A program made the translations under genes and the position numbers. Shown here one piece after another: positions 19,178 through 56,230 of a stretch of 64,000 nucleotides of DNA. Below the pieces are notes generated by a model. The model searched no databases. It was not told the DNA's origin and was given only the letters and a program-made list of their open reading frames with translations. Position 1 is the first letter of the stretch. Each line of letters opens with the position of its first letter. The DNA lies in the NCBI RefSeq assembly GCF_964204645.1, contig NC_134034.1:6236914-6300913 (forward strand). Reading direction: 5' to 3'. The stretch is from Tubulanus polymorphus (lineage: Eukaryota; Animalia; Nemertea).

Positions 19178-19341
19178 TTTTACGATATGCAAGGCTCTCA
19201 GGTACCGTATTGATTCGTCCAGTGTGTCAACTTCTACATGTGAATAAGTTTGCTATGGAAATCGACTCAATAGTTGCCTAGTTTTTCCCCGCTTTTGAAA
19301 TATAAACAATTCAAGCCCAAGTCATGTTTACATTTATGTAG

Positions 19342-19570
19342 GGTGAAGTCAGACATGGATGACCGCAGTAACAAACTAATGGGTGCACATGGTTACTGTA
19401 CACAAGAAATGGTGAATTTGATTCTTCTAGGATATGCTGCTTCAAATGTATTCAATGATACCGTTGAGTTAGGTGGTGCTGCTGATGGATCATCATTAAT
19501 TCTGAAAGGCATACGTCAGCGTAGTGATGTAGGACTGCTATCTCTTTTTGAGCATTATAAATCTTGTCAG
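19342..19570 (+). CDS. MINDY4: MINDY4 exon
   Basis: tatgtag|VKSDMDDRSNKLMGAHGYCTQEMVNLILLGYAASNVFND...RSDVGLLSLFEHYKSCQ|gtagga; diagnostic GAHGYCTQE and LSLFEHY motifs. Confidence 0.95.
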
Positions 19571-20541
19571 GTAGGAATCTGTATTTTAAGGGATTTCAGG
19601 ATTTCACAGGAAACCCTATAATGATTCGTCTGATTATTATCATTTTTGCCTTTTCCACTGACTTGTTGAGACTTTGCCACTGACTGAATTAGATAATTTA
19701 ATCATGAAATATGACAAACTGGGAAAGATATAATGGTAGTCAAGGAAAAAATTACGTACTGTATTTTCCCAACTTCAAAGACTGGGTTGAAACTCAATGA
19801 AGCCAACTTATACCTAACAATAAATCAAGAATGGGTTATAAATGAATAACTAGAAAGAAACTTTAAAAGAGGACGTTTGTTTATGAAATGCATGTATACC
19901 TTGACACCTGCCACATTGATTGGAAATTTTGAATACCGGGTATTCAAGTGTCATCATCCAGCGTAATTCAAAAATTCTTCTTTGGGATTAAAAAAAACTA
20001 TGCAGTGTATCAATCCGGGATTTTCGGTACAAAATCCAAAGCCAAATACCTTCCTCTAAAAGGTTATTTGGTGTATATCGGATAAATATTAATTATGATA
20101 TTCACTTCATAAATTTTGAAGTGGATTGCTTCGGATTAATGGCAGCTCACATAGGCCAAACTCACCGCGTGTGTGCGTGTTGAGCGGACCATTGTGATAA
20201 TTATCAATGGTGTGAGCGTCTCTAGATTCTCAGAGGGCCTCTGTGCGTTCAAAAGTAATTAAGTTAAGTCACCATATGTTGACACTCACCTTTAGACTGC
20301 GTACGGTCCTCTTAAGTTAACATCCACCATACAATGATTTTAAGGGTGGCGCTTCTGTCATTCACTATACTCTACGTCATAAGCAACGCATGATGTGTGA
20401 TGTCACGTAAGAGGGCACGGTAAAACCTACCCAACTATTTTCAACCAAATTTAATCCCAACTTGAAGACACCATTTCAGATGCGGAATTTGAGGATATTT
20501 CTACTAAAAAGCATTATTGATTGCACTTGCATGATTTTTAT

Positions 20542-32322: not shown

Positions 32323-33566
32323 TTTTGCCCACTTGGGACTTTAGTCCCAGCGGGCTATTGCGTTCACTTTTCGTCCGTCGTCCGTCCGTCCGTAGAAGGA
32401 ATCCAGTTATTTTGGGAAGTTTTGAAGACGCTTCAATTTAATGTCTTGATATTTGGGTTACACATGTATCTACCCTAGACACATCTTCAGCCCAAAAACT
32501 GGTCCTGTCAGATTCAAGATGGCCGACTGGCAGCCATTGTTGTTCGCCAAAATCAGCACTTTTTACACATTTTTGAACTTTTTGAGGGAAATTTTGAAGA
32601 AGCTTTGATCAATTACCTTGATCTTTCGGATATATGTGAATGCCTCCAGGGCCCATCAGCATAACAAAAATTGGGTCGATCGGACTCATGGCCGTCCTAT
32701 GACCTTGTCAGTGCCCAAAAATGTTAATTTTGGCCCAAATTCTGAGTCCTGTAGCTTCCTACTGGTTTATCATTTCTCATTGCAATTTGTGATGGGTATT
32801 CTTTGGAAAGGGATGTTTTATACCTGAGACAGGTATTTTTCATCAGCCAATTATGACGCAATTGGTGGCCATCTTTGTGTCAGCAGTACTCATTCGTAAG
32901 TGGGGAAAAGTTTTTCCACATTATATTGATACCTAAGCGTATTTTGCTACCACAATCATTTAGAAAGTTGTAGCTCATAACGTGTTCTATGATTGTGGTG
33001 AGTTTGAAGGTCATTGGTTTTTGTATATGGCCACCGGGGGCGTTGAATTAGTATTTCTATATTATATTTGTATCAGTGCATATTTTGTAACCACAATCAA
33101 TTGCAAAGTTGTAGCTCATGACATCATCTATGATTGTGGCAAGTTTTAAGGCCATTAGTTATTCTATATGGTCACCAGGGGGCTGAATAGTAGAATAACT
33201 TAGTATTTCCTTATTATATTGGTACCTAGGCATATTTTGTTACCATCATCAATTACAAAGTTATAGTTCGTGACATGTTCTATGATTGTGGTGAGTTTCA
33301 AGGTCATTGGGTTTTGAATATGGTCACCAGGGGGCGTTGAATAGTAGAATAACTTAGTATTTCCATATTAAAGTGGTAACGAGGCATATTTTGTTATCAC
33401 AATCAATTACAAAATCATAGCTGCTGACATGTTCTAAGATTGTGGTGAGTTTCAAGGTCATTGCATTCTGTATATGGTAACCAGGGGGCGTTGAATATTG
33501 AAATTATTAGATTGTTGAGCATTTGGAACCACTTCCCAAGTGGGCATGGTGTCCCTGGACCCCTAG
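32323..33566 (+). mobile_element. Full-length HINE family A copy
   Basis: Same termini and structure as 20856-22095; inserted at a TT with no TSD. Confidence 0.85.
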
Positions 33567-33754
33567 TTGTTCCATGATTTCGCGTGAATGTTTATTAGAA
33601 GTGTTCATTTTATGTAATGTGGTCCCTTGGTTTACTGATAGTTTGGTTGGACAATATATAGATTCAGATCTTAGGTAGAGAGTTTAGATAATTCCAAATC
33701 AATAGAAGCAAAAACAGTACAAATCTCATTTTCTAATGAGTTATATATATTTAT

Positions 33755-33800
33755 TATAGCGAACGTTTTCGGGAGTTACATTATCCCCTCTTCAGGCATA
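33755..33800 (-). ncRNA. Minimal hammerhead ribozyme motif in an inverted PLE pLTR
   Basis: Minus strand tatgc-CTGAAGA-g-ggga(taatgtaac)tccc-GAAA-acgt-TC-gctata. Confidence 0.6.
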
Positions 33801-34099
33801 GCGCAAGTGATTAAATTTACATATCATACTGGTATTTATATAGAAAAAGACGAAGCTAATTACAAACAATTTCAAATAACTGAGTGACAAGATAATTATA
33901 ATACAAAGATAATTTATTACAAGGCAAAAGAGTGTCATATGACACACAACAACGGCAAGAAACTTCTCAACTTATGGAAACAGCAACGCCATCCTGCACC
34001 CGATTGTCTCATCAACCATTCAAAATATAAACTCTCTCTCGAAGAAACTGAAGTTTTACGTTACGCCTTAAAACACCGTTCTTTTACTATGAAAATATC

Positions 34100-34262
34100 A
34101 GTAAGGATCTAATGAATGAAAACATGAAATTGAGTAACCTGAGAGTAAATTGAGATCCTTACTGATATTTTCATAGTAAAAGAAAAGCGCAGCCAATATT
34201 AATCCTCCTGCTATAAGATAATGCTTCAAATCACTTTTCCCAGTTGGAATGAATCCATCCAT
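34100..34262 (-). CDS. Small viral-type membrane protein ORF (MDGFIPTGKSDLKHYLIAGGLILAALFFYY...), 3' end rearranged
   Basis: Starts in TAATTTTTTTC-TTAAA-TAAATG like the other viral genes; one hydrophobic segment. Confidence 0.45.
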
Positions 34263-34312
34263 TTATTTAAGAAAAAAATTAAAAGTAATTTGAAATATCT
34301 TATTTTGAATAA

Positions 34313-34888
34313 TTAGAGTTGAATCATTATTTTTGAGTTATGATATTTTGATTTAAGATGGTGTGATTTATTGCTTCGAGTATAATATTTTCCACAATAA
34401 CATAACGCTTTTTCATTTGGTTCATATTTAGGTGTTTCGATTTTATTTTCTAAGTTACATTGAATTCCAACATCTTTGAATGATTTTTCATTTGGAATGT
34501 CAGGGGTAAATCTTTTTTCTTCTACTCTGAAAAACATTATATAGCATTCTCTAAAAGGGCAATAACGTAAATGTAAAAATAAAGATTTATGTGAATTCTC
34601 ATTATTAAAAAGTGATCGTATTTCATCTGTAATTATTAAATGTTGATCTATTTCATCAAATGTTGTGATTTTTGGAATTATTGTATTGAATAAGATTTTA
34701 TCTTTATCTTTCGATAACTCTATCATTAGATAATGATTTTTAAACATTAATTCAGTAATATAGTTCACTTGAAAACGAAAACGTCCAGTTTCAATCAAAT
34801 CTTTAATAGGAATGAAATTTCTAATTGTAAAATATTTTTCTAATTCATTTAAATCAATATCGTTGAACTGTAGTATCTGTTCATTCAT
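34313..34888 (-). CDS. Viral-type hypothetical protein with a C-terminal C2H2-like Zn finger
   Basis: 191-aa AT-rich ORF, TAAATG start, CYCGKYYTRSNKSHHLKSKYH. Confidence 0.6.
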   Translation of the reverse strand: MNEQILQFNDIDLNELEKYFTIRNFIPIKDLIETGRFRFQVNYITELMFKNHYLMIELSKDKDKILFNTIIPKITTFDEIDQHLIITDEIRSLFNNENSHKSLFLHLRYCPFRECYIMFFRVEEKRFTPDIPNEKSFKDVGIQCNLENKIETPKYEPNEKALCYCGKYYTRSNKSHHLKSKYHNSKIMIQL

Positions 34889-35917
34889 TTATTAGTCATC
34901 ATTTATTAAAATTGATATTTTCTTCAACTCATTAATTACTCGTTACTTTTATGTGAAAATCAAGAATTTAACATATAAATATAAATATTCACTGTTTTAA
35001 ACATGAATTATTTCACTCACACTTTTGATGTTAAAAATTTATTTTTAATCATTCGAAATCTATATTCGATCTTATTTTTCTAGATTATTATGCGTACATT
35101 TCACTCTCACTTTTAAAACATGAAATTTATTTTAAAATATATGAAATTCATTAAAATAATGTTTTAGATATATGAATATTTTAAGAGTAATTGGGAATAC
35201 GGGGTCCATGGCAAAGGTTGAAGGGTCGGAAAATAAATTCTAGTGTGCGAGAATTTATTTTTCGACCGTTCGACCTTTGGTATGAACCCCCGTATTCCCA
35301 ATTACTCAAATAATAACCGATGGAAACTCGAGCGCGAACAGTTGCTTTATTGAAAACCTCAGACATGCAACAACCTCGTTTATTAACAGCGCGAAATCGG
35401 TCTGCGGCTCAAGTTCGAATAAACGTTTTCACGACACCATCGAAAAACTCAGAAACAATCCGGATATAAAAATTAGTTCATTCGATAAGGGAACTGGTAT
35501 TGTGAATTAAGAACACTCGAAAAAATCATCTAATTATAATCAACGAGACCAAAATTTGTAATTTTCTCAGAAAACATGTAATTCTGAAATTTTTGAAAGA
35601 ATTTATCCAAGTGGCATTCAACCTGGTTAATTGTATGGCTTATGCAAAGTTCATAAAGATAACTTTCCTTTCAGACCTGTAGCTTCGATCATCGGCACTG
35701 CTAAATACAATCTGGCTAAGTATCTGGATAAAATTATCAAACCACTTATTTCTACCTGGGAGTTTCTGGAAAGGCTTAAGGTTTTCATTTTTCACCCTTC
35801 TGATATACCCATTAGTTTTGATGTCGAATCTCTGTTTACAAACGTACCGCTCAAAGAAACTATAGACCTAATTTCGGATTATACCTACAAATCAGATTCC
35901 AAACCCTCGTACGGTAA

Positions 35918-36137
35918 GGCTAAACAAAAATGATACCTTGTTTCTCCGCAGCGGCCGGGTCATTTTTGTAAAATATGATCAAATTTATAAACAGTTCATT
36001 TCTATAGCGGCCGGGTCTGTTATGGTAAAATTGATCACGATTTTAAAAAAAGTAATGTATAGGGTAGATAGGCGGCCGGCCGGGTCAACATTTAAGCTCA
36101 GCAGAGCGGAGAAACAAAGTATCAATTTTTTTTAGCC
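35918..36137. mobile_element. PIF/Harbinger-type MITE inserted in the PLE RT
   Basis: TAA|ggctaaacaaaaatgataccttgtttctccgc...gcggagaaacaaagtatcaattttttttagcc|TAA; the RT frame resumes after it. Confidence 0.85.
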
Positions 36138-36673
36138 TAAGGCTACGTTTAAACAACTTCTCAGTATCGCAACATCTGGAATGTTTATGCACAACAATCG
36201 TCTATTTAAACAAGTTGATGTAACAATGGGCAGCCCATTAGGCCCTACTTTAGCTAACTTCTATCTGGCACACATTTTCAGAATTTACTATTGACTGATT
36301 GCAAATTCAAACCCACATTGTACCTTAGATATGTTGATGACATTTTCTGTATTTTTCGAATTAACTCCAACTACAATTCATTTTTGATGCACTAAATACT
36401 ATGCATCCTAATCTGAAATTCACTTTTGAACTTGGCCCGAACATTTTACCCTTTTTAGATACTCTCATTCTAGCACAGACTGACACTGGTAGTATTGATT
36501 TCATCTCATGCGTCTATAGAAAAGCTTCTAATACTGGATTACTTTTGAATTTTAATGCAATGTGTCCTTACAAATGGAAATCTGGTCTTATCAACAAGTA
36601 ATTGGAAAATGAGGGTTTCATTCGAGAGGTCGGCACATCACTCATCACCACAAGTAATTTTTTTTCCTAATAA

Positions 36674-39600
36674 ATGGGAGACCATGACCACCAAACAGAA
36701 AATATTAACGTTAATAAAAATCAATATTATTGTCCATATTGTAAAAAATTAATCGATAAATCTAAAAAATCTCGACATGAAAAAACTGCAAATCATAAAA
36801 AAAGTTATAGATTTTGAAACACCAGAAAATTCAAATGAAAGAAAAGAACAATTAGAAAATATGAAAAAAGATGAAATTAAATGTATTGTTTGTAATGAAT
36901 TTATAGTAAAAAGGAATTTTAAAAGACATCTCGAATCACAAAGACACAAACAAAATTAAAATAAAAATATTTTAGGAACAGAATATTTTGATGATAACAA
37001 GTTTTGATTGACAAGTAAAAAACCAGCTTCAAAAACTAAATCTATTTCAAATAAACCTTATATGGAAAATGTTAGAAATTATATCGATCACTACATATAA
37101 TATTATATATACTATTATTATCACTAGAAATAAAAGATACAACATAAATTTTAGAAACATTACGTAGTAAAATTGGACCGGCAGCTATTATATTTAGATT
37201 TTTTAAAGGATCAACAATAGAAGATTATAGCAAATATATTGAAATAATGGAAAAAATAATGGACCTTGTAACAGATGTTGAATATCCAAAAATTAGTATT
37301 TCTGGAAAAGTAAGTTTTATGAAATCAGAACTAAAAATGGAGTATAATATTCAAACACATTCTGAAGAAATAATTTCAAAAACACAAATAAAGGAGAAAT
37401 TAGAAAAAATATTTAATGAATTTAAACGTCATATTGAAGAAAGATATTTTGAGGGTTCTGGTTTAACATTGAATGAAATTATATTTTTAGATTTAAATAT
37501 TTATAATACAAAAAGGAATAAAGCATCAAAAAGTAATACAATGTTTACAAATAATTCAAACTTTACAACAGAAAAGGATATTAAAGCATCATCTTATATT
37601 AAATTACCATTTACAACAAAAGCAGTAATAAATGTTCAGAATGAAGATAATAAATGTTTTCTATGGTCAATTGTTAGTTGTTTACATCCAACAGAAGGTA
37701 TAACGCATAGTTTTAGAATAACAGATTATCGGAAATATGAAACATTATATATAAAATTGATCAATATCCAGTAACTATGAAGATGATTCCTAAAATAGAA
37801 AAAGTTAATAATTTGAAAATAAATGTATTCGAATAAATGCAATTACCAGAGACAAAAGGTGAAAATATTAAAGATTATACATTAGAAGCTTTATATTTAA
37901 CAGAATATTATGATAATGAAAATGTTATACATTTATTATACTATGAAAAAGATGAAAATAACATTATATGTGGTTAAAACAAATTGATTTATTCTTTAGA
38001 ACAGAAAGTGATTTCAACAGTCATAACAAAATATATTTATGTAGAAAATGCTTATCTAAATTTAGAACTGAAAATGCATTACTAAAACATAAAGAATTGT
38101 GTGATAATAAAGATTTTTGCAAATTAATAATGCCAAGAAAGAAAGATTGTAAGTTGAAATTGTAAGTTTAATAATCATAAATTTAAAAATATTGTTCCAT
38201 TTGTTAGTTATGGGGATTTTGAATCGTTGAATAAAGAATTAACTGATCAAGATAGAAAAGAAATATAAAATAAAAAGCAATTTTTAAAATCAATGGATAA
38301 AGGAAATGAATTAAATGAAGACATAATTCAAGACCCACCAATTATAAACACAATTAAAAAAGTTCATCAAAGAGCTGCTGCTTATGGAATTTATATAAAA
38401 TCAAATTATACTGGATTATATGCAAGTCAATATATTTCTTTTAGAGGTGAAAATGTTGTAAATGAATTTTGTAATAAAATTATAGAATTAGAAAGTGATT
38501 TTGTGCAAATTATTAAACAAAAATAAAAGAATAGTTATGACAAAAGAAGATGAAATTGATTTTAATTATGCAACTCATTGTTGTTACTGTGAAAAACATT
38601 TTTATTCATTTGATAAAAAAGTTAGAGATCATGATCATTTAAATTCAAAATATCGTGGAGCTGCTCATGAAGATTGCAATTTACAAGCTAAGAAAGTTAA
38701 TTTCATATCAATATGATTTCATAATTTATCAGGCTATGATACCCATCTATTCATCAAACAATTATCAGGAAAATGGGCGCAAGTAATCAAGAAATAGAAG
38801 AATATAATGCTATGAATGGTGCAAATGTAAGAAAATATGATTTTAAACTATTAGCTAAGACATCTGAAAATTATATTTCATTTCAATTTGGTTGCATTAG
38901 ATTTTTAGATTCTTATAGATTTTTAGCAACTTCATTAGATAATTTAGCAAAAAGTTTAGTTGATAATGATTTTATAATAACTCGACATTATCCAAATGAA
39001 CAAGATTTTAATTTATTGAGATTTAAAGGTGCAATTCCTTATTCACTCTATAAAACACATGATGATTTTTATGTAACAGAATTATTAAAAGAACAATTTT
39101 ATGATCAATTAAAAGAGGAGTATGTGAAAGATGAAGTGTTTAATAGAACATTAAATATTTGGAATCATTTTAAGATAAAAAATCACGGTAAATTAGTAGA
39201 TTTATACTTAAAATCAGATGTTATGATATTGGCTGACATATTTGAAAAATTTAGAGAAGTTAATTTAAATCATTTTAATGTTGATCCTTGTTATTGTTAT
39301 TCAAGTCCTGGTTTAACCTGGCAATATGGTTTAAAATATACAAATGTAGAATTAGATTTATTAAAAGAACCAGACAAAGTTTTATTATTTGAAAAATCAA
39401 TTACAGGTGGAATTAGTGGTGTTATGGGAAATAGGTATTTTAAAGTAAATGATGAATATAAATTATTGTATATTGATGCAAATAATCTATATGGTTGGGC
39501 AATGATGCAACCTCAACCATACAAAAATTTTATATTAACAGAAGTTGAAAATGATGATAAAACTGATTGGGAAAGTGCAATTATGGGTTTAAAAGATGAA

Positions 39601-41786
39601 GCACCAATTGGTTATTTCTTTGTAGTTGATTTAGAATATCCTGATAACATAAAGTTTAAAACAAGACACTAACCATATTGCCCAGAACATTTAGCCGTAG
39701 ATGATAGTTATTTAAGTGAATACCAGAAGAAAATAAAACCGAAAGATCATGTTTTTACAGAAAAATTAATATTTACTCAAAATAATAAATACAATTATAT
39801 TGTTCATTATAGAATGTTAAAATTCTATCTAAAACAAGGAATGAAATTAAAGAAAGTACATAGATATATTGAATTTAATCAATCGATGTGGTTAGAAAAA
39901 TATATAGATTTTAATACTCAACAGAGAACCATATCAAAAACAGATTTTGAAAAAGATTTCTTCAAATTAATGAATAATAGTTTTTATGGAAAACATGTGA
40001 ATATATTAGAAATAGAAATGATATTGAATTAGTAAATAATTCCGAATGATTGAGACATTTACAATCAAGTCCTAGACATTTAGGAAATAAAAGATTTGAA
40101 GATTATTTAACAGCAGTAAAATTAAACAGAACGTCAATGAAATTTAATAAACCTATATTCATTGGTTCAACTGTTTTAGAACTATCAAAATTATTAATGT
40201 ATGATTTTTATTATAATGTTTTACAACCACATTTTGGGGAAAAACATATTGAAATATTATATTTTGATTCTGTAACAGCTGATACCCCAATATTATTGAA
40301 ATACAATAACCAAATATTAATAAGAAGAATTTCAGAAATAATTCCAAAACAAAATGAACTTTATATTTCATATGGTGAAAAAGAATTAATACAAATAAAA
40401 GGATTAACGGATGTGTGGACAAGAAATGGATGGAAAAAATTAAAGAATATTATAAGGCATAAAACAAATAAAAGAATTTATAGAGTTAGAACTAAATTTG
40501 GGTTTGTTGATGTTACCGAGGATCAAAGTTTAATTAGAAATAATGGTGATGAAATAAAACCAACTGATATAAAAATTGGAGATGAATTATTACATAAGAG
40601 ATTTTACCCAAGAATGAATCATATGTCATTTGATGAAATAATTGATAATATTTATAACATAGAACCTGTAACATTAGAAGAATAAGAATATTTTATCAAA
40701 GGATTTTTTATGGGCGATGGTTCAGCAGGTGTGAATAATTATGTTAGTCGCACTCGATATTGTTGGTATTTATGCAATCAAGATTTGAAATTATTAGAAA
40801 GAATAAAGAAATACTGTGAAGAAGTTTATTCACACAAAACATTTTGAATCATGGATGTTATGAAATCATCAGCAGTTCATAAAATACTTGTAAATAATCC
40901 TAAAGATTTTGTTATAAAATATAATGATGAATTCTATATTCATGCAATAGTCAAAGTAATACCTCAACAAAAGAAAAGATAGTTCCAGATTATGTATTAA
41001 ATGCAAAAGATAATTTAAGAAAATAGTTCTTCATTGGATTCTACGCAGCAGATGGTGCTAAAAAATTTACGAGTTCTCCAGTAATAACATTTGCACAAAA
41101 AGGAAAAGTTTGTATATCAGGATTAAATATATTATGCAATTCATTAGGTTTTAATATGAATATTGGATTGATTAAATCTAAACCAAATTGTTTTATTCTA
41201 AGGCACACAGAAAAAGAAATAACTGAAGAAGTTAGAGATTTATTTGAAATATATAACCCAACAGATTATGTTTATGATTTATCAACTGAAGATGGAACAT
41301 TTAACTGTGGATTTCCATTAATAGCGGTCAATACGGACGCCTACATACTAAAAATCAAGACAAATGATATAACAAAAGACTTAAAAACATTAAAACATCA
41401 TTTTGACTTTAGCAATTATCCAAAAGATCATGAACTATCTAGCAATGATAATAAAAAAATTCCTGGTAAATCTAAAGATGAATTAGGGACGATGAAATGA
41501 TTGAATTTGTTGGGATAAGAAGAAAATGTATAGTTATAGAACAAAAGATCATGAAGCTAAAAAGTTAAAAGGAATAACAAAACATGTGGTTGATAAACAC
41601 ATAGAATTTCAAGATTATATAAAGTGTTTATACAACTCAATTGTAATGAAACATAAAATGAATTGTTTAAAATCAGAAGATGACGAGATGTACATTAATG
41701 AAGTTGAAAAAACTAGTTTAAATCCGTTCGATGATAAAAGATATATTTTGGGTGATGGAATAAAAACATTACCTTGTGGCCATTAA
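36674..41786 (+). pseudogene. Protein-primed family B DNA polymerase of Polinton/adintovirus type, with N-terminal Zn fingers and an intein (the 36674-37000 Zn-finger part may be a separate gene)
   Basis: INVQNEDNKCFLWS; ExoI YGDFESL; DHDHL..KYRGAAH..CN; ExoII FHNLSGYD; RFLDSYRF; ExoIII YLKSDV; motif A YIDANNLYG; motif B FFKLMNNSFYGK; motif C YFD|TD; KIPGKSKDE; FDDKRY..TLPCGH; many stops and frameshifts. Confidence 0.92.
40269..41332 (+). mobile_element. Intein with LAGLIDADG homing endonuclease inserted in PolB motif C
   Basis: Block A SVTADTPILL directly after YFD; block B VDVTEDQSL; LAGLIDADG-like FIKGFFMGDGS (40692-40724) and FFIGFYAADG (41027-41056); block F YVYDLSTEDGTF; ends LIAVN|T; removing it restores ILYFDTDAYILKIKT. 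Confidence 0.92.
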
Positions 41787-43095
41787 AAAAGAAAATCAAT
41801 ATCATCATTCTCGAAATCACTACTGGTTTCATCATTTTTACTTAATTGTTTAGGTTCTTCCATTTCATATTTCTCTTTTAAATAAAATTCTATATTATTC
41901 CACATTTCATCTCGCTCTCTTTGTTTCTTTTTGTTCATTAATTCATCAAATGGAATTATAATATCGATGTTTAAAAAATGTACAATCTTATTTAAACAGG
42001 ATTCATAATTAATTGAATCTGTTATTTTATTATCCACATAAAACTTTAATATGTTTGTGAATGTTTCTTTTATATTTTCCATATCTTCTTTTGTTAATTT
42101 AGGTTTTTTATAATAATCGTTAAATAATCAATATAAATAAATTTTCCTTTCTTTTGTGTTAAATGATGATGGAATAATTGTTTTTATTATATCTTTTTTA
42201 ATTATTTCACCATTTTTATTTTCTATCATTTTCATTTTGTCAAGCCATTGCTTGTATTCTGGTGTATGATCTTCCATAGAAAATATCTTAAAAATTGCAT
42301 CTAGATATTTTCATTTTGGTTCTATAAGAATATCTCTGGTTTTTTCATCACCCCATAAATTCCTTTGCCATCCACATTCATTAGAAAATACCACAGAATC
42401 TTCTTGTCTTAAGTACACATAAATACATTGTGGGCATTTTTTTAATCATATCTTGGCAATAGATCTTCATTAAGTTCTTGGTATTTTCTTACGTTTTCTT
42501 TATGTTTCATTGTTTTATTATGTAGATTTGAATTACTTGTTGTAATAATCAATTTACAATATTTGCAATAATATGTTTTTCTTACTAATTCATTTTATTG
42601 TTTTTCCAACTTTTCAAGTCTTTCTTCATTATCTGGTAACGTTTTCTCATATTTTATGTTTTCTAATATATTATTTTTTCTTTCATTGAATTCTGCTTCA
42701 AATTTATCAGAAATGTAAACTATATGTGCTTTACGAAATTGATGATTTTCCCAATCTTCTACATTTTCAGTGCTATATTTTATTCGACAAGGCTCACAGA
42801 AATGATCTTTTATATTATTCTTGTCATAGAATAAGAAAGGTCTTTTTCAAATAATTTCAGGTTCAGTTTCAACCGAATCATTATTACTTTCGTTACTATC
42901 AACATTAACCTTTGAGTCATCAATTTTACACTTCTCTGAATGTTTTTTAACATAATTTCTTGAGAATAATTTATTACAATTTGGGCAGTTTATTTTAGGG
43001 GGTTTATAATTTCTATCATGTTTTTTCATATGTCGAGCCATATTACTTTTTCTTTGAAGTTCACCACAAATTTCACATCCTATCTTCTCATCCAT
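41783..43095 (-). pseudogene. Viral multi-zinc-finger protein, convergent with PolB, broken by stops
   Basis: CEICG..NMARHMKKH, CPNCNK..KHSEKC; reading through stops gives CEPC..HQFRKAH, YYCKYC..HNKTMKH, CPQC; C-terminal ORF 41783-42082. Confidence 0.6.
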
Positions 43096-43162
43096 TATTT
43101 CGGAACAATTTTATTAAGATTAATTTTCGATGGTTCGAGGTAATTTTTTTGTGTTATAAATA

Positions 43163-43898
43163 ATGGTTGAATTAAAAGAATATAGAATATTTGTTGATTC
43201 TAGAAAACTGTTAAATTATCAATCACATAATTTACTAGTACAATTGTGTAGATTTAAAATTAATAAATATTAGTTTATTTAATTCTTTTTATAATATATC
43301 AGATAAAACTATTGATCATAGAGGTTATGCAGTTATTAACAAAAATAAAAATAAATGGTATCCTCTTTTTCTAAAACCAGGGTTATATAATTTAGATACA
43401 TTACCTCAAGAAATTTATAGAAAAGCCTTGCACAAATTAGGTAGTGATTCCAGATTTAATATTATATTTTCAAAAAGTGATAGTTCTAATAAGATAAAGG
43501 TAAGGTTAACTAATGATGAAAAATATCAATTTTTAGTTAAAAAACCTATAGCTAAACTATTGGGAATTACACCAGATAAACTTTATTCAAATGTTGATGC
43601 TACACCAAACTTAATACCTTACACACACTTTTATATTTATTACAATTTAATTGATGCTACAAAAACATTCGAAGAAACTAAAGATATAACATGTAATTCT
43701 AGTTTATTGAATATTTTACCATTAAAAATGTTAAGCAATTTGGAACACAATTAAATCCTAATTTAGCTGAATGATTTTAAGCCCTGTATTTCACAATTCA
43801 ATAATTTTAAGTTAGAAATTAGAAATCATAATGGATACTTAATTGATTTGGATCGTTTTCCTGTAATTTATGAATTAGTTATAAGATGTAGAGAGTAA
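43163..43898 (+). pseudogene. Putative minor capsid (penton, single jelly-roll) protein
   Basis: MVELKEYRIFVDSR..; SLFNSFYNI; LKPGLYNLDTL; AKLLGI; FYIYYNLI; LLNILPL; FKLEIRNHNGYLIDLDRFPVIYELVI; this pattern is typical of Polinton/PLV pentons; frameshifts present. Confidence 0.6.
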
Positions 43899-43914
43899 TT
43901 TTTTCATTATATAA

Positions 43915-44255
43915 ATGAATATAACTGTTGGACCGAGTATATGTTTTGGATTTGATTTTAAACGTGAGAAAGAAATGAAATTTGATATTAATGATGTAAT
44001 AACTCATATAAAAAATATTGCATTTACTAATGAAACAACATTTGAATATGAAACAACAATACATAAAGACACTTTTAATGTAGAAAAGGATACTGATTTA
44101 ATTAGAGAGTCTTTAAGATTTTAAGAATTAGATGAAGATTTTATTATTAATGATATTAAAAAAATAATAACTGAAATATATGAAAATGAAACTAATAATA
44201 TTATAAAGGTTGAAATAATTATAACTAAGATAACTAAATATTTTGAAGACAGTAA
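43915..44255 (+). pseudogene. Small viral hypothetical protein with an internal stop
   Basis: TAAATG start; the frame continues past TAA at 44122-24 to ~44255. Confidence 0.45.
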
Positions 44256-44271
44256 ATTTTTTTCTAAATAA

Positions 44272-44532
44272 ATGGCGGATCAGAAGTGGATAATAACTGG
44301 TTTATATAATGGAGCATTATTATCAGTGGGAACCGTTGGTTATACAATGGTATTAAAAAAAGTATTTAAAATGGGAAGTATTAATGTTGATCAATTTGAT
44401 ATCAATGATATTTTGAAATTAACATTAGCAGTAACTTTATCTAATTTAAAAATTGATTATTTATATATAAATATATTCCTCCTATATAAATACGTAATAT
44501 TTTTACTAAATAAATGGCTCCTGCAATTATAA
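44272..44532 (+). CDS. Small viral hydrophobic protein
   Basis: TAAATG start; GLYNGALLSVGTVGYTMVLKKVF..DINDILKLTLAVTLS..IDYL; resembles small ORFs of invertebrate Polinton-like elements (from recall, not searched). Confidence 0.55.
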   Translation: MADQKWIITGLYNGALLSVGTVGYTMVLKKVFKMGSINVDQFDINDILKLTLAVTLSNLKIDYLYINIFLLYKYVIFLLNKWLLQL

Positions 44533-44942
44533 CTATTATAGGATCGGCAATTGTTAACGCTTTAGCATTTACTGGTGGTGGGTATTTATTTAAGCATATT
44601 GATAAAAATAGTTCATTAGCAGAACAAAGAAGACATAACTTAGCATTAGAGAAATACAATAAAGCTGCAGAAGAATACAGAGAAAAGAGACAAAATTACA
44701 CTACATTGTGTAATTTTCTGATTATATAATTCTTTATTAATGTAATCAATAGAGATTCTCAATCAGTTGATGAAGCTATGAGTTTATATAACGCAGTAAC
44801 AAATAAAGAAAAATTACATCTGTATAAACCTAAATTATCAGATTATTATACACCAAGTAGTGAACAACAAAAATATGAAATAATTTGGATTTTAGGTGGA
44901 ACAGTTATTGTATTATTTGTTGCTTATAAATTTACTAATTAG
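44514..44942 (+). pseudogene. Viral membrane-associated protein, frameshifted
   Basis: MAPAIITIIGSAIVNALAFTGGGYLF..AEQRRHNLALEKY..; continues ..KPKLSDYYTPSSEQQKYEIIWILGGTVIVLFVAYKF; hydrophobic N- and C-termini. Confidence 0.6.
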
Positions 44943-44961
44943 TAATTTCTTTTCTAAATAA

Positions 44962-45396
44962 ATGGATGATAAAGTTGATAATATTGATATTATTCCTCAT
45001 GATAAAAATAAAACTAAATTAAAATTATATTTGGAAAAACAAATATTAGAATCTGAAAATGATTTAAAGATTAAAAAGAAAAAATATTTAAAAAGTAAAA
45101 TTATATATTATTTTATTATTAGTATTTCAGCTACAATTAGTTCTGTAATAACATTTCTAGCATTATTCTCGCCATTAACACCTTTAGCTATCTCAATTGG
45201 AGCTTTAGGTTTAAGTTCAAGTGTATTAACCGGCATAAGTTCAAAATTAAATATAACAAGTTATAAAGAAAAAATAAAATCTTATATGAAAGAAATTAAT
45301 AAATTAAAACATACATTAGATTATACAATGAGTTTAAATGGTAATATAACAGTTAAAGAACAAGATAAATTATTTAAAAAATTAATAAATTATTAA
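44962..45396 (+). CDS. Viral two-transmembrane protein
   Basis: Intact 144-aa ORF, TAAATG start, two adjacent hydrophobic helices flanked by Lys-rich segments. Confidence 0.65.
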   Translation: MDDKVDNIDIIPHDKNKTKLKLYLEKQILESENDLKIKKKKYLKSKIIYYFIISISATISSVITFLALFSPLTPLAISIGALGLSSSVLTGISSKLNITSYKEKIKSYMKEINKLKHTLDYTMSLNGNITVKEQDKLFKKLINY

Positions 45397-45411
45397 TTTT
45401 TTTATTATATA

Positions 45412-46800
45412 AATAGATAGTTTTCCAAAAGCTTTCCAATATAATAAATCAATTAGATATAATATTCCTGCAATAGATTTTAATAAAGATATTTCATATA
45501 GAAATGAAGTTTTAAATTCATTAATTAATTTAGATATTTATGTTACTGAAACTAATAATTTTAATGCAAAGATGGAAAATATATTTCATGTATATCTAAT
45601 TAATTTTAAAAATTGAAAGATGAAAAACAATGGCTATTAAAATCTAGTATGAAGTATTGGCAGAACCAATTAAATTTTGCAGTTTATTGTGCAACAACAG
45701 GTTGTGGAATTAGTTGGAATGATCATTTGAATAATTCTAAATATAAATTAATTCAAAGTTTATTTAGATTCCATACATACTTTCAAATAAGATTAATATT
45801 AAATGAATTAGAGTGTCCTTTACCAGGATCTAGGTATTTTAAAGAATAAGATAATGATATTATATTAATAATATTATTATCAAAGTTTTATAAAATTTGT
45901 AATGAATATAATATAGATTTAAATAATTATGATTTTAGAACAAAAATTGGAACAATAAGATGTTTTCCTTGCCCTAAAAAGATTGCACAATATTGAGCAC
46001 TTCCCATACCATCTAATAGTTTTTATAATATCTATAATAATAAATTAGGCTATGGCAAAATAGAAACTTTGGATTTAAAAACATTAAATTTCAATAAATT
46101 ACCGAAATTTTATGATAATTTAAAACAAGAAAACAATAATGGTTGGGTTTATTTCATTTTAGAAAATAGTGAAGATTTTACAAAATCAGGTATACAAAGA
46201 ATAAATCAATCAATTAGAACTTATTTGATATGTATTGTATTCTAGGTGCACAAGTTGAAACAAGATCCCCGATAATTGGAAATTTAAATACATCATTCGA
46301 TACACAAAAACAATTCAAAGTATTATTTGAAGATTCTATTCATAATGATGAAAATATACCCATTCCAGACAACATTGTAAGATATCTAAATTATTTAGAT
46401 AAATCTCATGCAAGATTAAATTATTGTATAGGCCCTAATTTGTTAATTATTTCAAATGATTTAATATTAAAAATGGGAAATAATAATTGATTTTAATAAT
46501 CTAATTAAAACTGCAACAATACATAATAAGTTTGGATTAAATGATATAAATAAAAAGATTATTACTGCTCCAAAACTAATGGAAGGTGACAAAAATTAAA
46601 AAACATATTCAATCAACAGAAACTAAAACTAAAAATATTAAATTGGATAATGATTCTAAAATAAAAGATTACAATACTACAGAAAATATTAAAACTGATA
46701 ATATTCAACATGAAATAATTAAAACTTATAATGATAATAAATCCCATGAAAATACTAAGTTAGCTATTACTTGTATAGGAATTGTAATAGGAGGAATATT
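45412..46800 (+). pseudogene. Conserved Polinton-associated hypothetical protein, C-terminal TM cut by a HINE
   Basis: YWQNQLNFAVYCATTGCGIS, LFRFHTYFQIRLILNEL.CPLPG, G..RINQSIRTY.YCILGAQVETRS; probable start mutated to TAAATA. Confidence 0.55.
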
Positions 46801-49635: not shown

Positions 49636-50149
49636 ATAACACATAATCCTTTCCGTATGCTGGACTCACACTTGACATTCGGAGTAAGCGTTCGCTGTGG
49701 GGGAAAGGGATCGTTCGATGTGTCGCTTGAAGTGTTTATCGAGTTTAACGCGGCTTTAGGCCTACCGGTACTGAGCTTTACTGTCTCAAACAAACACAGT
49801 ACAATTGTTGCGTTTATTAAAGGACTCATTGGATTGAACTTCAAAACAAAATTTACGATATTTAGGTGGGTTGTTAAATTCAATAGGCCTACGACCAATC
49901 TGTCCGGATATTAGGCCTACGCATATACATAGGCCTACATAGGCTAGTAGCCTCTACTAGGTTAAGCGTTCGCTGTGGGGGAAAGGAGATCGTTCGCTGT
50001 GTCGCTTGAAGTGTTTATCGAGTTTTACGCGACCTTAAGGCTTTATTATGGTGGCTGATAAGGGCCATACGTAAAAAAAACACGTATATGCAAATGAGGG
50101 CGACATTATAACAAAACGACAAAACTAAAATAACGCGACAAAACAATAA

Positions 50150-51257
50150 TTTTGGTTCATTATTTTGGTTTTATCGCCCGCGACAATCATTATTTTGGTT
50201 TTATCGCCCGCGACAATTCATTAATTTGGTTTTGTCACCCGCGACAAATCAATATTTTGGTTTTGTCGCCCATGACAATTCAATATTTTGGTTTTATCGC
50301 CCGCGACAATTCATTATTTTGGTTTTATCGCCCGCGACAATTCATTATTTTGGTTTTATCGCCCGCGACAATTTTTTTTTGTCGCGGTTTTATCTCCCGC
50401 GACAATTCATTATTTTGGTTTTATCGCCCGCAACAATTCATTAGTTTGGTTTTGTCGCCCACGACAATTCAAGATTTTGGTTTTTCTGCCGCAACAATTA
50501 ATTTTTTGGATTTGTCGCCCGCGACAATTCAATATTTTGGTTTTATCGCCAGCGACAATTCATTATTTTGGTTTTATCGCCCGCGACAATTCATTATTTT
50601 GGTTTTATCGCCCGCGACAATTCATTAATTTGGTTTTGTCACCCGCGACAAAACAATATTTTGGTTTTGTCGCCCACGACAATTTAATATTTTGGTTTTA
50701 TCGCCCGCGACAATTCATTATTTTGGTTTTATCGCCCGCGACAATTCATTATTTTGGTTTTGTCGCACGCGACAATGGCGACAATTCAAGATTTTGGTTT
50801 TATCGCCCGCGACAATTCATTATTTTGGTTTTATCGCTTGCGACAATTTTTTTTTCTTTTTGTCGCGGTTTTATCGCCTGCGACACTTCAATATTTTGGT
50901 TTTATCGCCCGCGACAATTCATTATTTTGGTTTTACCGCCCGCGACAATTCATTAGTTTGGTTTTGTCGCCCGCGACAATTGAATATTTTCGTTTTGTCG
51001 CCCGTGACAATTCATGATTTTGGTTTTATCGCCCGCGACAATTCATTTTTTTGGTTTTATCGCCTGCGACAATTCATTATTTTGGTTTTATTGGTTTTTT
51101 GGTTTTATTCATTTTTTTGGTTTTGTCGCCCGCGACAATTCAATATTTTGGTTTTATCGCCAGCGACAATTGATTATTTTGGTTTTATCGCCCGCGACAA
51201 TTGATTATTTTGGTTTTATCGCCCGCGACAATTATTTTTTTTGGTTTTGTCGCCCAC
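50150..51257. repeat. 31-bp satellite array
   Basis: Unit ttttggtttt(a/g)tcgcccgcgacaattcatta. Confidence 0.95.
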
Positions 51258-51345
51258 ATTATTAGCTTTTGAATAATTACGCCAATTAATAACGTAATAA
51301 AGACTTATGCATTCGCCTATTTTGAAGTCGATTAATCTGATATAG

Positions 51346-51768: not shown

Positions 51769-54381
51769 GATATAGTGTCGAATATTAAGGTCATTTTGGC
51801 AGATTCTTTTTCTTTTAAAGTGATATTAAAGCGATCATTCAAGTGATCCTACTTAATGAAAGATGTACGGAAGCGATAAAGGGACTCGAGTTGTTGCGTT
51901 CCAACTCGACAAGTCGCCATATTTATGTCAATATATCGCATCAATTCGACATGAATATGTCGACATATCGTGACATTTTGACGACTTGAAACTCAGTCGT
52001 CATATCACTGGCGTCCTCATCTTTCAGCAACGCCAGTCACATTGAGTCGTACGTGTTCTACTTTCTGCGACGCGACACGACTGTCACAACCAACCGACGC
52101 GCTCTTGCGACTGGCAGAAACTAGTCGCACACAATCGTATTGCAAGCGACTTGCAATGCAACGCGAGGATCGCATCGAGTCACAAGAACAACCTACGTCT
52201 GGCTTTAAGTTACTGCGGAGCACCAGAAATATCTTTTTTTTCGTTCAAAAGACCTTTCGCTTGAAAATTCTTTCGTCGGAACAAAATTTATTTCGTTTGA
52301 ACCAATAATATTCTATACAATTACACCAATTTGAAAGAATCGTTAGAACAAAGTTGAACAAACTTTTTTTTGTCCAAACGAAAGGTTTTTCGTTCGAACA
52401 ATCATTCAATTGAACAGAATCGTTTTAATTTGAAAAGAATTTTCTTGTCAGAACATTAAGTTTTTCGTTCGAACAAGTATATTGAAAAAAGTTTTTTCTC
52501 CGAACCGAAAGTATTAAGTATTTTGTTCAATCGAACAGAATTGTTTTCATTCAAACATTCGTTCGAAAAAAATTGTGTTCGCTCAACCAGATTTTTTTTC
52601 ATTTCAACAATAACATAGCTTTTTATTCGAACACATTTTTTGTCAGAATGAAGAAGATTTTCTTGTTGGAACATTAAGTTTTTTGGTCGAACAGCGTGTT
52701 AAGGTCGATTTGGAAATTTACTGGTATGTATTGGATTACTGTGTATGTCATTTGTCAGGATATTAAACAGAAGACAATTTAGGATACTACCTTGCGTGAC
52801 TCCACTAGTTTGACCGACTTATTCCAAGATGAGGCGTTCCGTTGATTTCAGCTACAAGTTTTCGTTCAGAGGTAACTGCTGAGCCATTTGGGCGACATAT
52901 CATTGATACTGTTTCCTAATAGCCTGTTTACAAATGGCTGATGTTGTGCCTTATCAAATGCTTCGTCAAAATCCACCGTTGAACAGGATTCTAAGACTGT
53001 GCAGAAAACCCGTTATCGCTGCTTTGCAGCTATATTTATTATTATTATTTTTTTCCACACATTTTTTGTCAAAAGTACATAGGCTTTTTTACATTACCGC
53101 TGTTGCCGATACAATCCGTCTGATATCATTCAGCTCAGTTCGATCTACAAATACTCCGTGCGAATTTGAAGAATCAACGTTACAAAAGCACTGTCGGGCC
53201 GTAAACATCGAAAATTGAGCCCCATTCAAAGAGCCGACATGTTTTTCTAAGTCCTCTTTCCGAAATCTACCGCACGTTTCTTGTCACATCGATTATCAAT
53301 TCAAGCAGAAATTAACAAATTTATTACCCAAAGATTGCACATTCTGTCGCGGTTTTTAAAATCTAATTTTAACAATAACCCATTTTCCTCATCAAATTAT
53401 AATACCAATACACAGGAAATTTACTACTTTAGATTTTAAAAGCACTGTCGAGCCGTAAACATCGACGAATGGACGTGTGTCACTACATCGTCGTTCCGGG
53501 GATCAGCTGCGAGTTTCTCCTCATCATGAATATCAAATCGAGTACAAATTAATTTATTACTACCAGTGATTTGGCTGCGGGTTTCAAGGAGTTAGTACAA
53601 CAATACCTATTTTTCTTTACCGAATTAACCGTGTATTTACTAAGATAAATCTTTAGTGTACCGGGGAATCGTAGGCCTAAACTAAACACGCCGAAGAGAT
53701 ATAGCGGAGAAAAGCTGTTATGTCGACGAGGTATCAAAATAAAAGAATATATTACTTTATTCGGCCGCGGGCTTCAACCTCTATATCAATACCATCAATA
53801 CTCTATATTTCCTACAGTACATACCGATCATTGACAAATGCACAAGGTATTTACTAAATACAAGTATATAACACATAATCATTTCCGTATGCTGGACTCA
53901 CACTTGACATTCGGAGTAAGCGTTCGCTGTGGGGGAAAGGGATCGTTCGATGTGTCGCTTGAAGTGTTTATCGAGTTTAACGCGGCTTTAGGCCTACCGG
54001 TACTGAGCTTTACTGTCTCAAACAAACACAGTACAATTGTTGCGTTTATTAAAGGACTCATTGGATTGAACTTCAAAACAAAATTTACGATATTTAGGTG
54101 GGTTGTTAAATTCAATAGGCCTACGACCAATCTGTCCGGATATTAGGCCTACGCATATACATAGGCCTACATAGGCTAGTAGCCTCTACTAGGTTAAGCG
54201 TTCGCTGTGAGGGAAAGGAGATCGTTCGCTGTGTCGCTTGAAGTGTTTATCGAGTTTTACGCGACCTTAAGGCTTTATTATGGTGGCTGATAAGGGCCAT
54301 ACGTAAAAAAAACACGTATATGCAAATGAGGGCGACATTATAACAAAACGACAAAACTAAAATAACGCGACAAAACAATAA

Positions 54382-56230
54382 TTTTGGTTCATTATTTTGG
54401 TTTTATCGCCCGCGACAATCATTATTTTGGTTTTATCGCCCGCGACAATTCATTAATTTGGTTTTGTCACCCGCGACAAATCAATATTTTGGTTTTGTCG
54501 CCCATGACAATTCAATATTTTGGTTTTATCGCCCGCGACAATTCATTATTTTGGTTTTATCGCCCGCGACAATTCATTATTTTGGTTTTATCGCCCGCGA
54601 TAATTCATTATTTTGGTTTTGTCGCCTGAGAAAATTCATTATTTTGGTTTTGTCGCCCGCGACAATTCAATATTTTGGTTTTATCGCCCGCGACAATTCA
54701 ATATTTTGGTTTTATCGCCCGCGATAATTCATTATTTTGGTTTTATCGCCCGCGACAATTCATTATTTTGGTTTTGTCGCCCGAGACAATTGATTATTTT
54801 AGTTTTATCGCCCGCGACAATTCATTATTTTGGTTTTATCGCCCGCGACAATTCACCATTTTGTTTTTGTCGCCTGGACAATTCACCATTTTGGTTTTGT
54901 CGCCCGCGACAATTCATTATTTTGGTTTTGTCGCCCTGACAATTCTTTTTGGGTTTTGTCGCCCGCGACAATTCATTAGTTTGGTTTTGTCGCCCGCAAC
55001 AATTCAATATTTTGGTTTTATCGCCCAGGACAATTCATTACTTTGGTTTTATCTCCAGCGACAATTCATTATTTTGGTTTTGTCGCCCGCGACAATTCTT
55101 GTTTTATGTTTTGACGCCTGCGACAATTCATTATTTTGGTTTTATACTTTGTTTTTGTCGCCCAAGACAATTTTTTTTTGGTTTTGTCGCCCGCGACAAT
55201 TCATTATTTTGGTTTTGTTGCCCGCGACAATTCATTATTTTGGTTTTGTCGCCCGCGACAATTCAATATTTTGGTTTTGTCGCCCGCGACAATTCATTAT
55301 TTTGGTTTTATCGCCCGCGACAATTCAATATTTTGGTTTTATCACCCGCGATAATTCATTATTTTGGTTTTATCGCCCGCGACAATTCATTATTTTGGTT
55401 TTGTCGCCCGAGACAATTGCTATTTTAGTTTTATCGCCCGCGACAATTCATTATTTTGGTTTTATCGCCCGCGACAATTCACCATTTTGTTTTTGTCGCC
55501 TGGACAATTCACCATTTTGGTTTTGTCGCCCGCGACAATTCATTATTTTGGTTTTGTCGCCCTGACAATTCTTTTTGGGTTTTGTCGCCCGCGACAATTC
55601 ATTAGTTTGGTTTTGTCGCCCGCAACAATTCAATATTTTGGTTTTATCGCCCAGGACAATTCATTACTTTGGTTTTATCTCCAGCGACAATTCATTATTT
55701 TGGTTTTGTCGCCCGCGACAATTCTTGTTTTTTGTTTTGACGCCTGCGACAATTCATTATTTTGGTTTTATACTTTGTTTTTGTCGCCCAAGACAATTTT
55801 TTTTTGGTTTTGTCGCCCGCGACAATTCATTATTTTGGTTTTGTTGCCCGGGACAATTCATTATTTTGGTTTTGTCGCCCGCGACAATTCAATATTTTGG
55901 TTTTATCGCCCGCGATAATTCATTATTTTGGTTTTATCGCCCGCGACAATTCAATATTTTGGTTTTATAGCCCGCGACAATTCAATATTTTGGTTTTATA
56001 GCCCGAGACAATTCATTATTTTGGTTTTATCGCCCGCGACACTTCAATATTTTTGTTTTATCACCCGCGACAATTCATTAGTTTGGTTTTATCGCCCGCG
56101 ACAATTCATTAGTTTGGTTTTATCACCCGCGACAATTCATTAGTTTGGTATTATCCCCGCGACGATTCAATATTTTGGTTATATCACCCGGGACAATTCA
56201 TTAGTTTGGTTTTGTCGCCCGTGACAATTC
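54382..56230. repeat. 31-bp satellite array with a 626-bp higher-order duplication; resumes at 57472-57700
   Basis: Same unit; identical variant blocks offset by 626 bp. Confidence 0.95.

Follow-up and report, generated by a model that had tools for sequence, protein, structure and literature searches.

A decayed LAGLIDADG intein in motif C of a Polinton-type protein-primed DNA polymerase on a probably animal contig

An interrupted polymerase gene

The window analysed here is a 64,000-nt stretch of contig NC_134034.1 (positions 6,236,914 to 6,300,913, forward strand), deposited under the species label Tubulanus polymorphus. It holds a truncated, decayed Polinton-like element (36,600-46,800, with approximate ends set by GC content, read depth and a flanking repeat), whose gene for a family B DNA polymerase of the protein-primed kind (pPolB) is interrupted in motif C by an intein of 1,064 nt (40,269-41,332, + strand, from Ser1 to the terminal Asn). 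The upstream part of the polymerase, the N-extein (36,713-40,268, + strand), survives as several broken pieces that align with the relatives P0230 and P0228 at 50-78% identity (tblastn), passes the DNA_pol_B_2 model (PF03175) with 50.8 bits against a cut-off of 25.8, and ends in the YFD of motif C. The C-extein (41,333-41,786, + strand) begins with Thr+1 (TDA) and is broken near 41,515. On the + strand, ...HIEILYFD (to 40,268) is followed by SVTADTP... (from 40,269) at the 5' junction, and ...CGFPLIAVN (to 41,332) by TDAYILKIKT (from 41,333) at the 3' junction.

The insert carries stops at 40,683, 40,845 and 41,024 and one net frameshift at about 40,950-40,955, in full agreement with an initial annotation of this DNA, made from the sequence alone, that had described 1,064 nt with three stops and one net frameshift. 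Written with X at its four breaks, the insert has 354 residues, the same length as the intact intein of the relative P0002, to which it is 60% identical over 356 columns. Block A (SVTADTPI, 40,269-40,292, + strand) supplies the Ser1 nucleophile, and the N-terminal intein piece passes the NCBIfam intein_Nterm model TIGR01445 with 25.7 bits (cut-off 24.5). The alignment places a first LAGLIDADG motif, FIKGFFMGDGS, at 40,692-40,724 (+ strand; weak PF14528 match) and a second, FIGFYAADGA, at 41,030-41,059 (+ strand), and the Asp of both is retained in all seven Polinton inteins aligned. Blocks F and G (41,261-41,332, + strand, likewise from the alignment) run from VYDL... to a penultimate Val and the terminal Asn, so that the class 1 splice residues in the window comprise the block F Asp, the terminal Asn and the extein Thr+1.

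The junctions, the blocks and the passes of TIGR01445 and PF03175 bear out the proposal of the initial annotation that this is a true Hint and LAGLIDADG intein in motif C of a Polinton-type pPolB. The recognition by profile models that it had proposed as a check was obtained with TIGR01445 but not with Pfam, where LAGLIDADG_3 (PF14528) matched one broken intein piece below the cut-off (E 0.007) and no Hint match appeared among these pieces. A Hedgehog Hint domain or a bacterial intein-like domain was also considered, and is ruled out by the LAGLIDADG endonuclease together with the exact empty alleles described below.

The window copy is dead both as a polymerase and as an intein, because the intein and both exteins are broken. 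The broken exteins had gone unnoticed in the initial annotation, as had a change in block B (40,503-40,532, + strand), where the intein alignment shows Gln at the position of the conserved His. This His is kept in 9/9 other aligned inteins, and at base 40,526 within the block 171 of 190 reads carry a letter other than that of the window.

Filled and empty copies

Raw reads came from a separate whole-genome shotgun (WGS) study that bears the same species label (X5; 12% of one run); the source sample may be among runs X1-X4, which are non-independent. The X5 reads cover the element and its flanks alike; their depth is 109-252 across the intein and 275-517 across the N-extein. Their likeness to the window is mostly 90-99%, and this combination of high depth and imperfect likeness indicates that the element family is multi-copy; the lowest depth bin across 33,500-46,700 is 38. 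In 52 reads the flanks of the intein are joined so that exactly 1,064 nt (net) are skipped: 33 of them (about 21 starts) pass from 40,268 to 41,342 with 9 letters between, and 19 pass from 40,272 to 41,342 with 5 letters between, the linkers having four different spellings. Three more skip reads, one base off, were left out of this count. At three of the four breaks of the insert most reads differ from the window (242/245, 175/187 and 140/180; the third stop is not among the positions listed). Intein-bearing and intein-free copies thus coexist in one species.

The same two states are found among relatives. Protein searches seeded with the intein gave 99 matches, the best 120 of 3,095 and the best 150 of 3,449, and the P0105 cluster is represented by the 15 of its 136 members that were listed. 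At least 12 unbroken proteins combine pPolB with an intein; they fall into five clusters at 90% identity (P0002; P0008; P0105 with P0210, P0211, P0213, P0215, P0217 and P0221; P0118 with P0225; and P0120), and all have the insert at motif C. Their inteins measure 337-354 aa. When five of these relatives were scanned with Pfam, LAGLIDADG_3 was above the cut-off in 5/5, and Intein_splicing matched with E values of 2e-9 to 1e-5, above the cut-off only in P0105. A structure model of the P0002 intein (mean pLDDT 86.9) matches the endonuclease-bearing inteins TliVMA, PhoVMA, PI-PkoII, PI-PfuI and PI-SceI in the PDB (E down to 2e-15), and in a viral library it matches the family B polymerases (PolBs) of an unknown phycodnavirus (31%), Pandoravirus, Marseillevirus and Megavirus (25%, rank five). 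The modelled fold of the P0002 intein is a Hint domain with an embedded two-motif LAGLIDADG domain.

P0002, whose extein is 57% identical to that of the window, and P0346 (77%) couple the same extein to the same intein, and several protein fragments span the 5' junction. A pattern search of JGI metagenomes gave eight matches, of which one is real, a locus (L035) with the intein at motif C and two stops. The nearest full exteins are intein-free (P0228, 82%; P0229-P0231, 71%) and read YFD/TDS gaplessly across the insertion site. These proteins and the 52 skip reads accord with the initial annotation, where removal of the insert restores an in-frame YxDTD, and the proposed search for alleles with and without the intein was successful in the reads as well as among relatives. 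Motif C is filled in 13 and empty in 87 of the 100 family polymerases that cover it, a set obtained partly from intein-seeded searches. In the wider polymerase family, none of 92 distant loci had an intein match, and 72 of the 92 span motif C without an insert.

The inteins closest to that of the window are other Polinton inteins (60%, 47% and 45% identity), and the nearest full-length inteins outside Polintons are those of giant-virus metagenome-assembled genomes (MAGs), at 35-42%. No Polinton-type intein was found in IMG/VR. Its sole match, locus L001 (31% to the N piece of the window intein), is not matched by the P0002 intein; a pattern for the C junction gave no matches there, one for the N junction gave five, all by chance in an unrelated protein, and a search with P0230 yielded 21 candidates, none with an intein. 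The intein pattern had no matches in GTDB, and the ESM Atlas returned only generic LAGLIDADG/intein clusters. GTDB does contain 66 loci (L064-L129) that encode the Polinton-type polymerase family, to which a UniRef entry labelled Sulfurimonas (P0240) also belongs; these are likely misbinned eukaryotic or viral contigs. In P0017, P0026, P0031 and others, related inteins occur in type II topoisomerases at DQD/TDG, and some PolBs have two or three intein sites.

The P0105 lineage offers a close comparison of the two states, with seven filled and eight empty alleles whose N-exteins are 94-99.8% alike. P0105 and its empty near-twin P0222 differ at 18 of 619 positions, and 13 of the 18 differences lie within 51 positions around the insertion site (-7 to +44, bounds chosen post hoc). 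In a fixed interval of -10 to +12 there are 8 of the 18 (binomial p 8e-8), and all eight empty alleles of the lineage show 8-10 differences in that interval. Such a tract centred on the site is the pattern expected of co-conversion, in which an intein arrives from another allele together with some flank. In a distant group of 58 rows the filled state is matched at -2 and +4, but neither at -7 and -6 nor past +20.

The site of the filled alleles, YMD/TDS, is found in none of the eight empty near-twins, which read YFD/TDA (three), YTD/CDS (three) and YGD/TDA (two); judging by these spellings, the altered motif C could be an escape from cutting. Motif C is also unusually variable in the intein-free polymerases of this family (P0216-P0344), where YMD/CDS accounts for 22/87 and YID/TDA, YID/TDG and YTD/CDS also occur, which is odd for a catalytic motif. 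This variability may reflect pressure from the homing endonuclease.

The surrounding element and its host

Judged by its polymerase, a protein-primed one of family B, the element is of Polinton type. Its GC content is 23.5%, against about 38% in the flanks; the left edge is marked by a jump in read depth (38 to about 460), and on the right a host repeat starting at about 46,798 cuts off the end. Terminal inverted repeats were not recovered, in that no inverted pair joins the element ends among the 25 longest of 69 listed. Within the pPolB gene, and distinct from the intein, lies an Endonuclease VII/HNH-like domain (38,492-38,713, + strand; PF02945, E 0.004, below the cut-off), which is above the cut-off in the relative P0118. 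P0008 has a stretch that looks VSR-like by eye.

Downstream of the polymerase lies a broken gene for a VLTF3-like late transcription factor (41,786-42,310, - strand; PF04947, 25.3 against 25 bits on 41,786-42,127, with the upstream piece placed by frame only). A piece of a candidate minor capsid (penton-like) gene (43,239-43,751, + strand) is a lead only: its ESM Atlas look-alikes (0.96-0.98) fall in DUF5901 and Adeno_Penton_B clusters, through a minority of members and with low recognition value. A gene for a SLATT-like two-helix membrane protein follows (44,962-45,396, + strand; PF18142, E 0.003, below the cut-off; homologues in L069 and L070). The motif TAAATAAATGG, found by motif count, stands three times at gene starts on the + strand (44,265, 44,507 and 44,955, within 44,265-44,965); the window has four matches against 0.26 expected, three of them inside the element, and a further degenerate copy lies near 36,667 (repeat family D20). 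It resembles a poxvirus late promoter. The VLTF3-like gene and the repeated TAAATAAATGG may point to transcription by machinery of the large-DNA-virus type.

No integrase (rve), A32 ATPase or double-jelly-roll (DJR) major capsid gene was found among the window frames scanned, in a copy that is truncated and broken, and PHROGs gave nothing useful for 16 window pieces. Gene content was also examined in relatives, on 26 open reading frames (ORFs) from 3 of the 92 loci. L069 carries an A32 ATPase, a DJR capsid, an rve-chromo integrase and a SLATT homologue beside the same polymerase family; in L065, rve and A32 are present, as are two small genes in common with the window. An apparent tandem duplication of about 4.7 kb in L065 (11,792-21,219) comprises the 3' half of the polymerase, the integrase and neighbouring ORFs.

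Several further features were seen in and around the element. At 44,695-44,751, hundreds of reads from other copies switch strand (e.g. 266 reads at 44,695>44,751), which suggests that related elements have a hairpin or inverted junction there, absent from the window copy. An intact-looking ORF of 191 aa at 34,259-34,888 (- strand) has no Pfam or PHROG match and has TAAATAAATGG just beyond its end on the same strand; it is possibly a displaced piece of a Polinton-like element. Broken reverse-transcriptase-like frames without a Pfam match (35,286-36,598, + strand) abut the left edge of the element and, by their motifs, are presumably Penelope-like.

The flanks contain a Pao retrotransposon peptidase above the cut-off, a MINDY-3/4 deubiquitinase exon followed by a GT donor (19,274-19,618, + strand), a weak retrotransposon gag match and satellites. 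BEL/Pao elements are generally regarded as metazoan. Because the flanks carry the Pao peptidase and the MINDY-like exon, the host of the element is likely an animal; the animal germline named in the initial annotation is supported to this extent. Elsewhere in the flanks, three overlapping long frames at 23,747-25,945 (+ strand) look by eye like a broken hAT-type transposase, with no Pfam match, and 31-bp satellite arrays at 50,100-51,300, 54,300-56,000 and 61,100-62,700 yield spurious ORFs.

Origin of the intein and comparison with known systems

For the intein tree, 122 full-length inteins were extracted, 100 of them at the YGD/TD[S/C] site (YGD/TDS being the site that we take to be 'pol-c'). 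Six near-duplicate Polinton rows were dropped, the 108 non-Polinton rows were thinned to 29 at <58% identity, and 2 long branches were left out. In the resulting 35-row tree all eight Polinton inteins fall together in a single clade (100/100), whose sister group (97/86) consists of seven PolB motif C inteins, giant-virus MAG loci among them, with PolB and topoisomerase inteins in the wider neighbourhood. The sister position and the viral-library fold matches uphold the kinship with large-DNA-virus PolB inteins claimed in the initial annotation, although the inteins form a Polinton clade and are not nested singly among the viral ones. Its narrower label, 'Mimivirus-type', fits less well, given the MAG inteins as nearest viral relatives and the Megavirus PolB only in fifth place. 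The direction from giant virus to Polinton, also claimed there, is one that we infer from a midpoint-rooted tree.

In the extein tree (29 rows from 100), intein presence requires five changes and is unclustered (54/500 shuffles as low). P0008 stands apart: its intein is 40-46% identical to the others, its extein aligns only at E 6e-5 or worse, and it groups with the window and P0002 in the free tree (97/93). Two short fragments, P0410 and P0365, carry N-terminal halves of the Polinton intein clade; a tree of N-terminal halves groups them with the Polinton inteins (94/98), with an unsettled bootstrap, and is a lead only. By eye, the upstream sequence of P0410 is probably a third type of protein-primed polymerase.

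We conclude, with a probability of roughly three in four, that the insert is a decayed homing intein in pPolB motif C, and that intact members of its family are predicted to splice and likely spread by cutting empty copies. Splicing would follow class 1 chemistry, with an N-O acyl shift at Ser1, attack by Thr+1 and cyclisation of the terminal Asn, and would rejoin YxD to TD and restore a functional polymerase; the block roles are those given in PMC7765530. In homing, an empty motif C site elsewhere among the Polinton copies would be cut by the LAGLIDADG domain with its two motifs, and the intein plus some flank would be transferred when the break is repaired from the filled copy, in line with the model of cutting and repair in PMC10710043. 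The arena could be free viral genomes or integrated copies. Historically, a single old entry from the motif C lineage of large-DNA-virus PolBs, probably in a co-infected cell, would have been followed by repeated rounds in which the intein invaded, was lost and invaded again, and at least once it would have jumped from one polymerase type to a distant one. The transfer from giant viruses was likely ancient, with a homing cycle among Polintons thereafter.

Several observations weigh against this reading. The penultimate His is missing in the window (Val), P0002 (Ser) and P0008 (Lys) and present in 4/7 Polinton inteins, the residue being Lys in all three giant-virus inteins aligned; its absence lowers confidence in efficient splicing and leaves the kinship unaffected. 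The reads show no single fully open intein copy in this host. The bounds of the difference tract were set after the fact, as stated above, and no donor of the tract was found in the sampled distant group of 58 rows. The outgroups of the midpoint-rooted intein tree came from intein-seeded searches and include no named archaeal, phage or cultured-virus rows, and the extein tree carries a tool warning of long branches meeting. Placement of P0008 outside the other seven is not rejected by the AU test (p 0.086). Within the main polymerase family, finally, intein and extein identities track each other (60/57, 47/46, 39/42, 68/61 and 76/80%), as plain vertical descent would also predict; this co-divergence implies long residence and speaks against one recent transfer.

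The tracking of identities, seen across six lineages, speaks for a history in which the intein entered Polintons early and was then inherited vertically, with many losses and no homing now, and the rarity of the intein (13/100 close polymerases, 0/72 distant loci) fits it too. We consider this history unlikely in view of the site-centred tract between filled and empty alleles whose likeness is otherwise 98.7%, the intein in a barely alignable polymerase (P0008) and probably in a third type (the N-terminal fragment P0410), the endonuclease motifs kept at 40-60% overall identity, and the single species that holds filled and empty copies. Somewhat less probable still is that the intein and element are real and the host is a protist, a fungus or a misassigned contig, in which case a first metazoan intein could not be claimed. 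Inteins are known from endogenous viral polymerases of algae and a labyrinthulomycete (PMC10710043), and members of the polymerase family are also found on viral contigs and in misbinned MAGs, but the window has its Pao peptidase, its MINDY-3/4 exon with GT donor, gag and satellites in the flanks, and element and flanks alike are covered by the separate WGS study with the same species label.

The initial annotation had favoured one direct homing event from a Mimivirus-like PolB into the window element, followed by fossilisation. The insertion site identical to that of giant-virus PolB inteins, the sister position in the tree and the dead window copy would suit such an event. It is nevertheless largely refuted by the Polinton intein clade, and we regard it as very improbable: the closest inteins are those of Polintons, not of giant viruses, the clade tracks its exteins and has intact members, empty alleles occur in the same species, and three of the four breaks are absent from most reads. 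An assembly chimera of a giant-virus fragment and a Polinton can practically be dismissed. No contig piece among those listed spans the whole stretch or bridges the 3' junction by 31 letters, but contig pieces bridge the 5' junction in three runs, raw-read depth is unbroken over both junctions, P0346 and P0002 have the same extein-intein pairing, and the GC content of the intein (26%) is near that of the extein (24%).

Beyond the decayed homing intein itself, we tentatively put forward, at somewhat less than even odds, that animal germlines hold an active homing intein spreading among integrated Polinton copies, that empty copies evolve escape in motif C, and that the intein reached Polintons through co-replication with large DNA viruses, a route at which VLTF3 and the TAAATG-like starts of genes hint. 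Should the host be an animal, integrating viruses do carry inteins into animal nuclear DNA. A giant-virus-type intein in Polintons is physical evidence of cells shared with large DNA viruses, because homing needs donor and target in one compartment, and it bears on the question of a virophage-like life of animal Polintons. With filled and empty alleles present in one genome, the homing cycle and catalytic-motif resistance become testable from sequence alone. Intein inserts would also cause annotation pipelines to miscall pPolB genes.

The intein is real and belongs to a known allelic kind; for its host protein family, and for the likely kingdom of its host, no earlier description was found. 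A eukaryotic intein survey (PMC5784728) reports inteins to be absent from metazoan genomes, with a Metazoa count of zero. The word intein is absent from the available main text of PMC8502044, PMC11131425, 10.64898/2026.06.19.733378, 10.1101/2025.04.19.649669 and PMC13215967, and the available parts of PMC12220804, PMC3671162, PMC13768754 and PMC2777158 treat inteins only generally or for giant viruses. The literature searched yielded no Hint-type intein for Polintons or animal genomes, in keeping with the novelty claimed in the initial annotation; subscription papers, InBase, Repbase notes and bioRxiv supplements may differ.

The nearest precedent in Polintons is a statement in PMC11071308 that endonuclease domains in their pPolBs suggest intein invasions. 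Its presumed source, a nematode Polinton paper (10.1101/2023.08.22.554363), describes HNH and VSR domains in pPolB2, in an available main text that does not use the word intein. Those domains are likewise nuclease inserts in Polinton polymerases, and the window pPolB has an EndoVII/HNH-like domain of its own; unlike them, the motif C insert has splicing blocks, the motif C position and exact empty alleles. The inteins that PMC10710043 reports from Klebsormidium, Tetrabaena and a labyrinthulomycete, where they lie in endogenous viral DNA polymerases, are likewise viral polymerase inteins on eukaryotic nuclear scaffolds. Their hosts are non-animal, and Polintons or Mavericks go unmentioned in the available main text and supplements, whereas the present case is multi-copy, with filled and empty alleles in one species.

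As an element, the window copy shares pPolB and multi-copy integration with Polintons/Mavericks (Polintoviricetes), including adintoviruses (PMC8502044) and coral polintoviruses (PMC11131425). VLTF3 is also present in some coral elements (PMC11131425), and SLATT in some MELD viruses and Polinton-like viruses (PLVs; PMC8502044 and 10.64898/2026.06.19.733378). Compared with canonical Polintons, the window copy is truncated, with no integrase, ATPase, major capsid or terminal inverted repeats in the frames scanned.

The closest known inteins are those in motif C of Nucleocytoviricota PolBs (giant-virus MAG loci L007-L029, the phycodnavirus entry C1IWE3, and the PolBs of Megavirus, Pandoravirus, Marseillevirus and HaV01). 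They occupy the same insertion point and share with the Polinton inteins Ser1, Thr+1, the terminal Asn and two LAGLIDADG motifs, and they provide the top fold matches and the sister clade, at the 35-42% identity given above for full-length MAG inteins. The host protein differs, being a PF00136 PolB in Nucleocytoviricota and a protein-primed PolB (PF03175) of a small integrating element in Polintons. At the Polinton sites, moreover, the position that separates Y from D is variable (F, M, L, G), and the Polinton inteins form a long-stemmed clade of their own.

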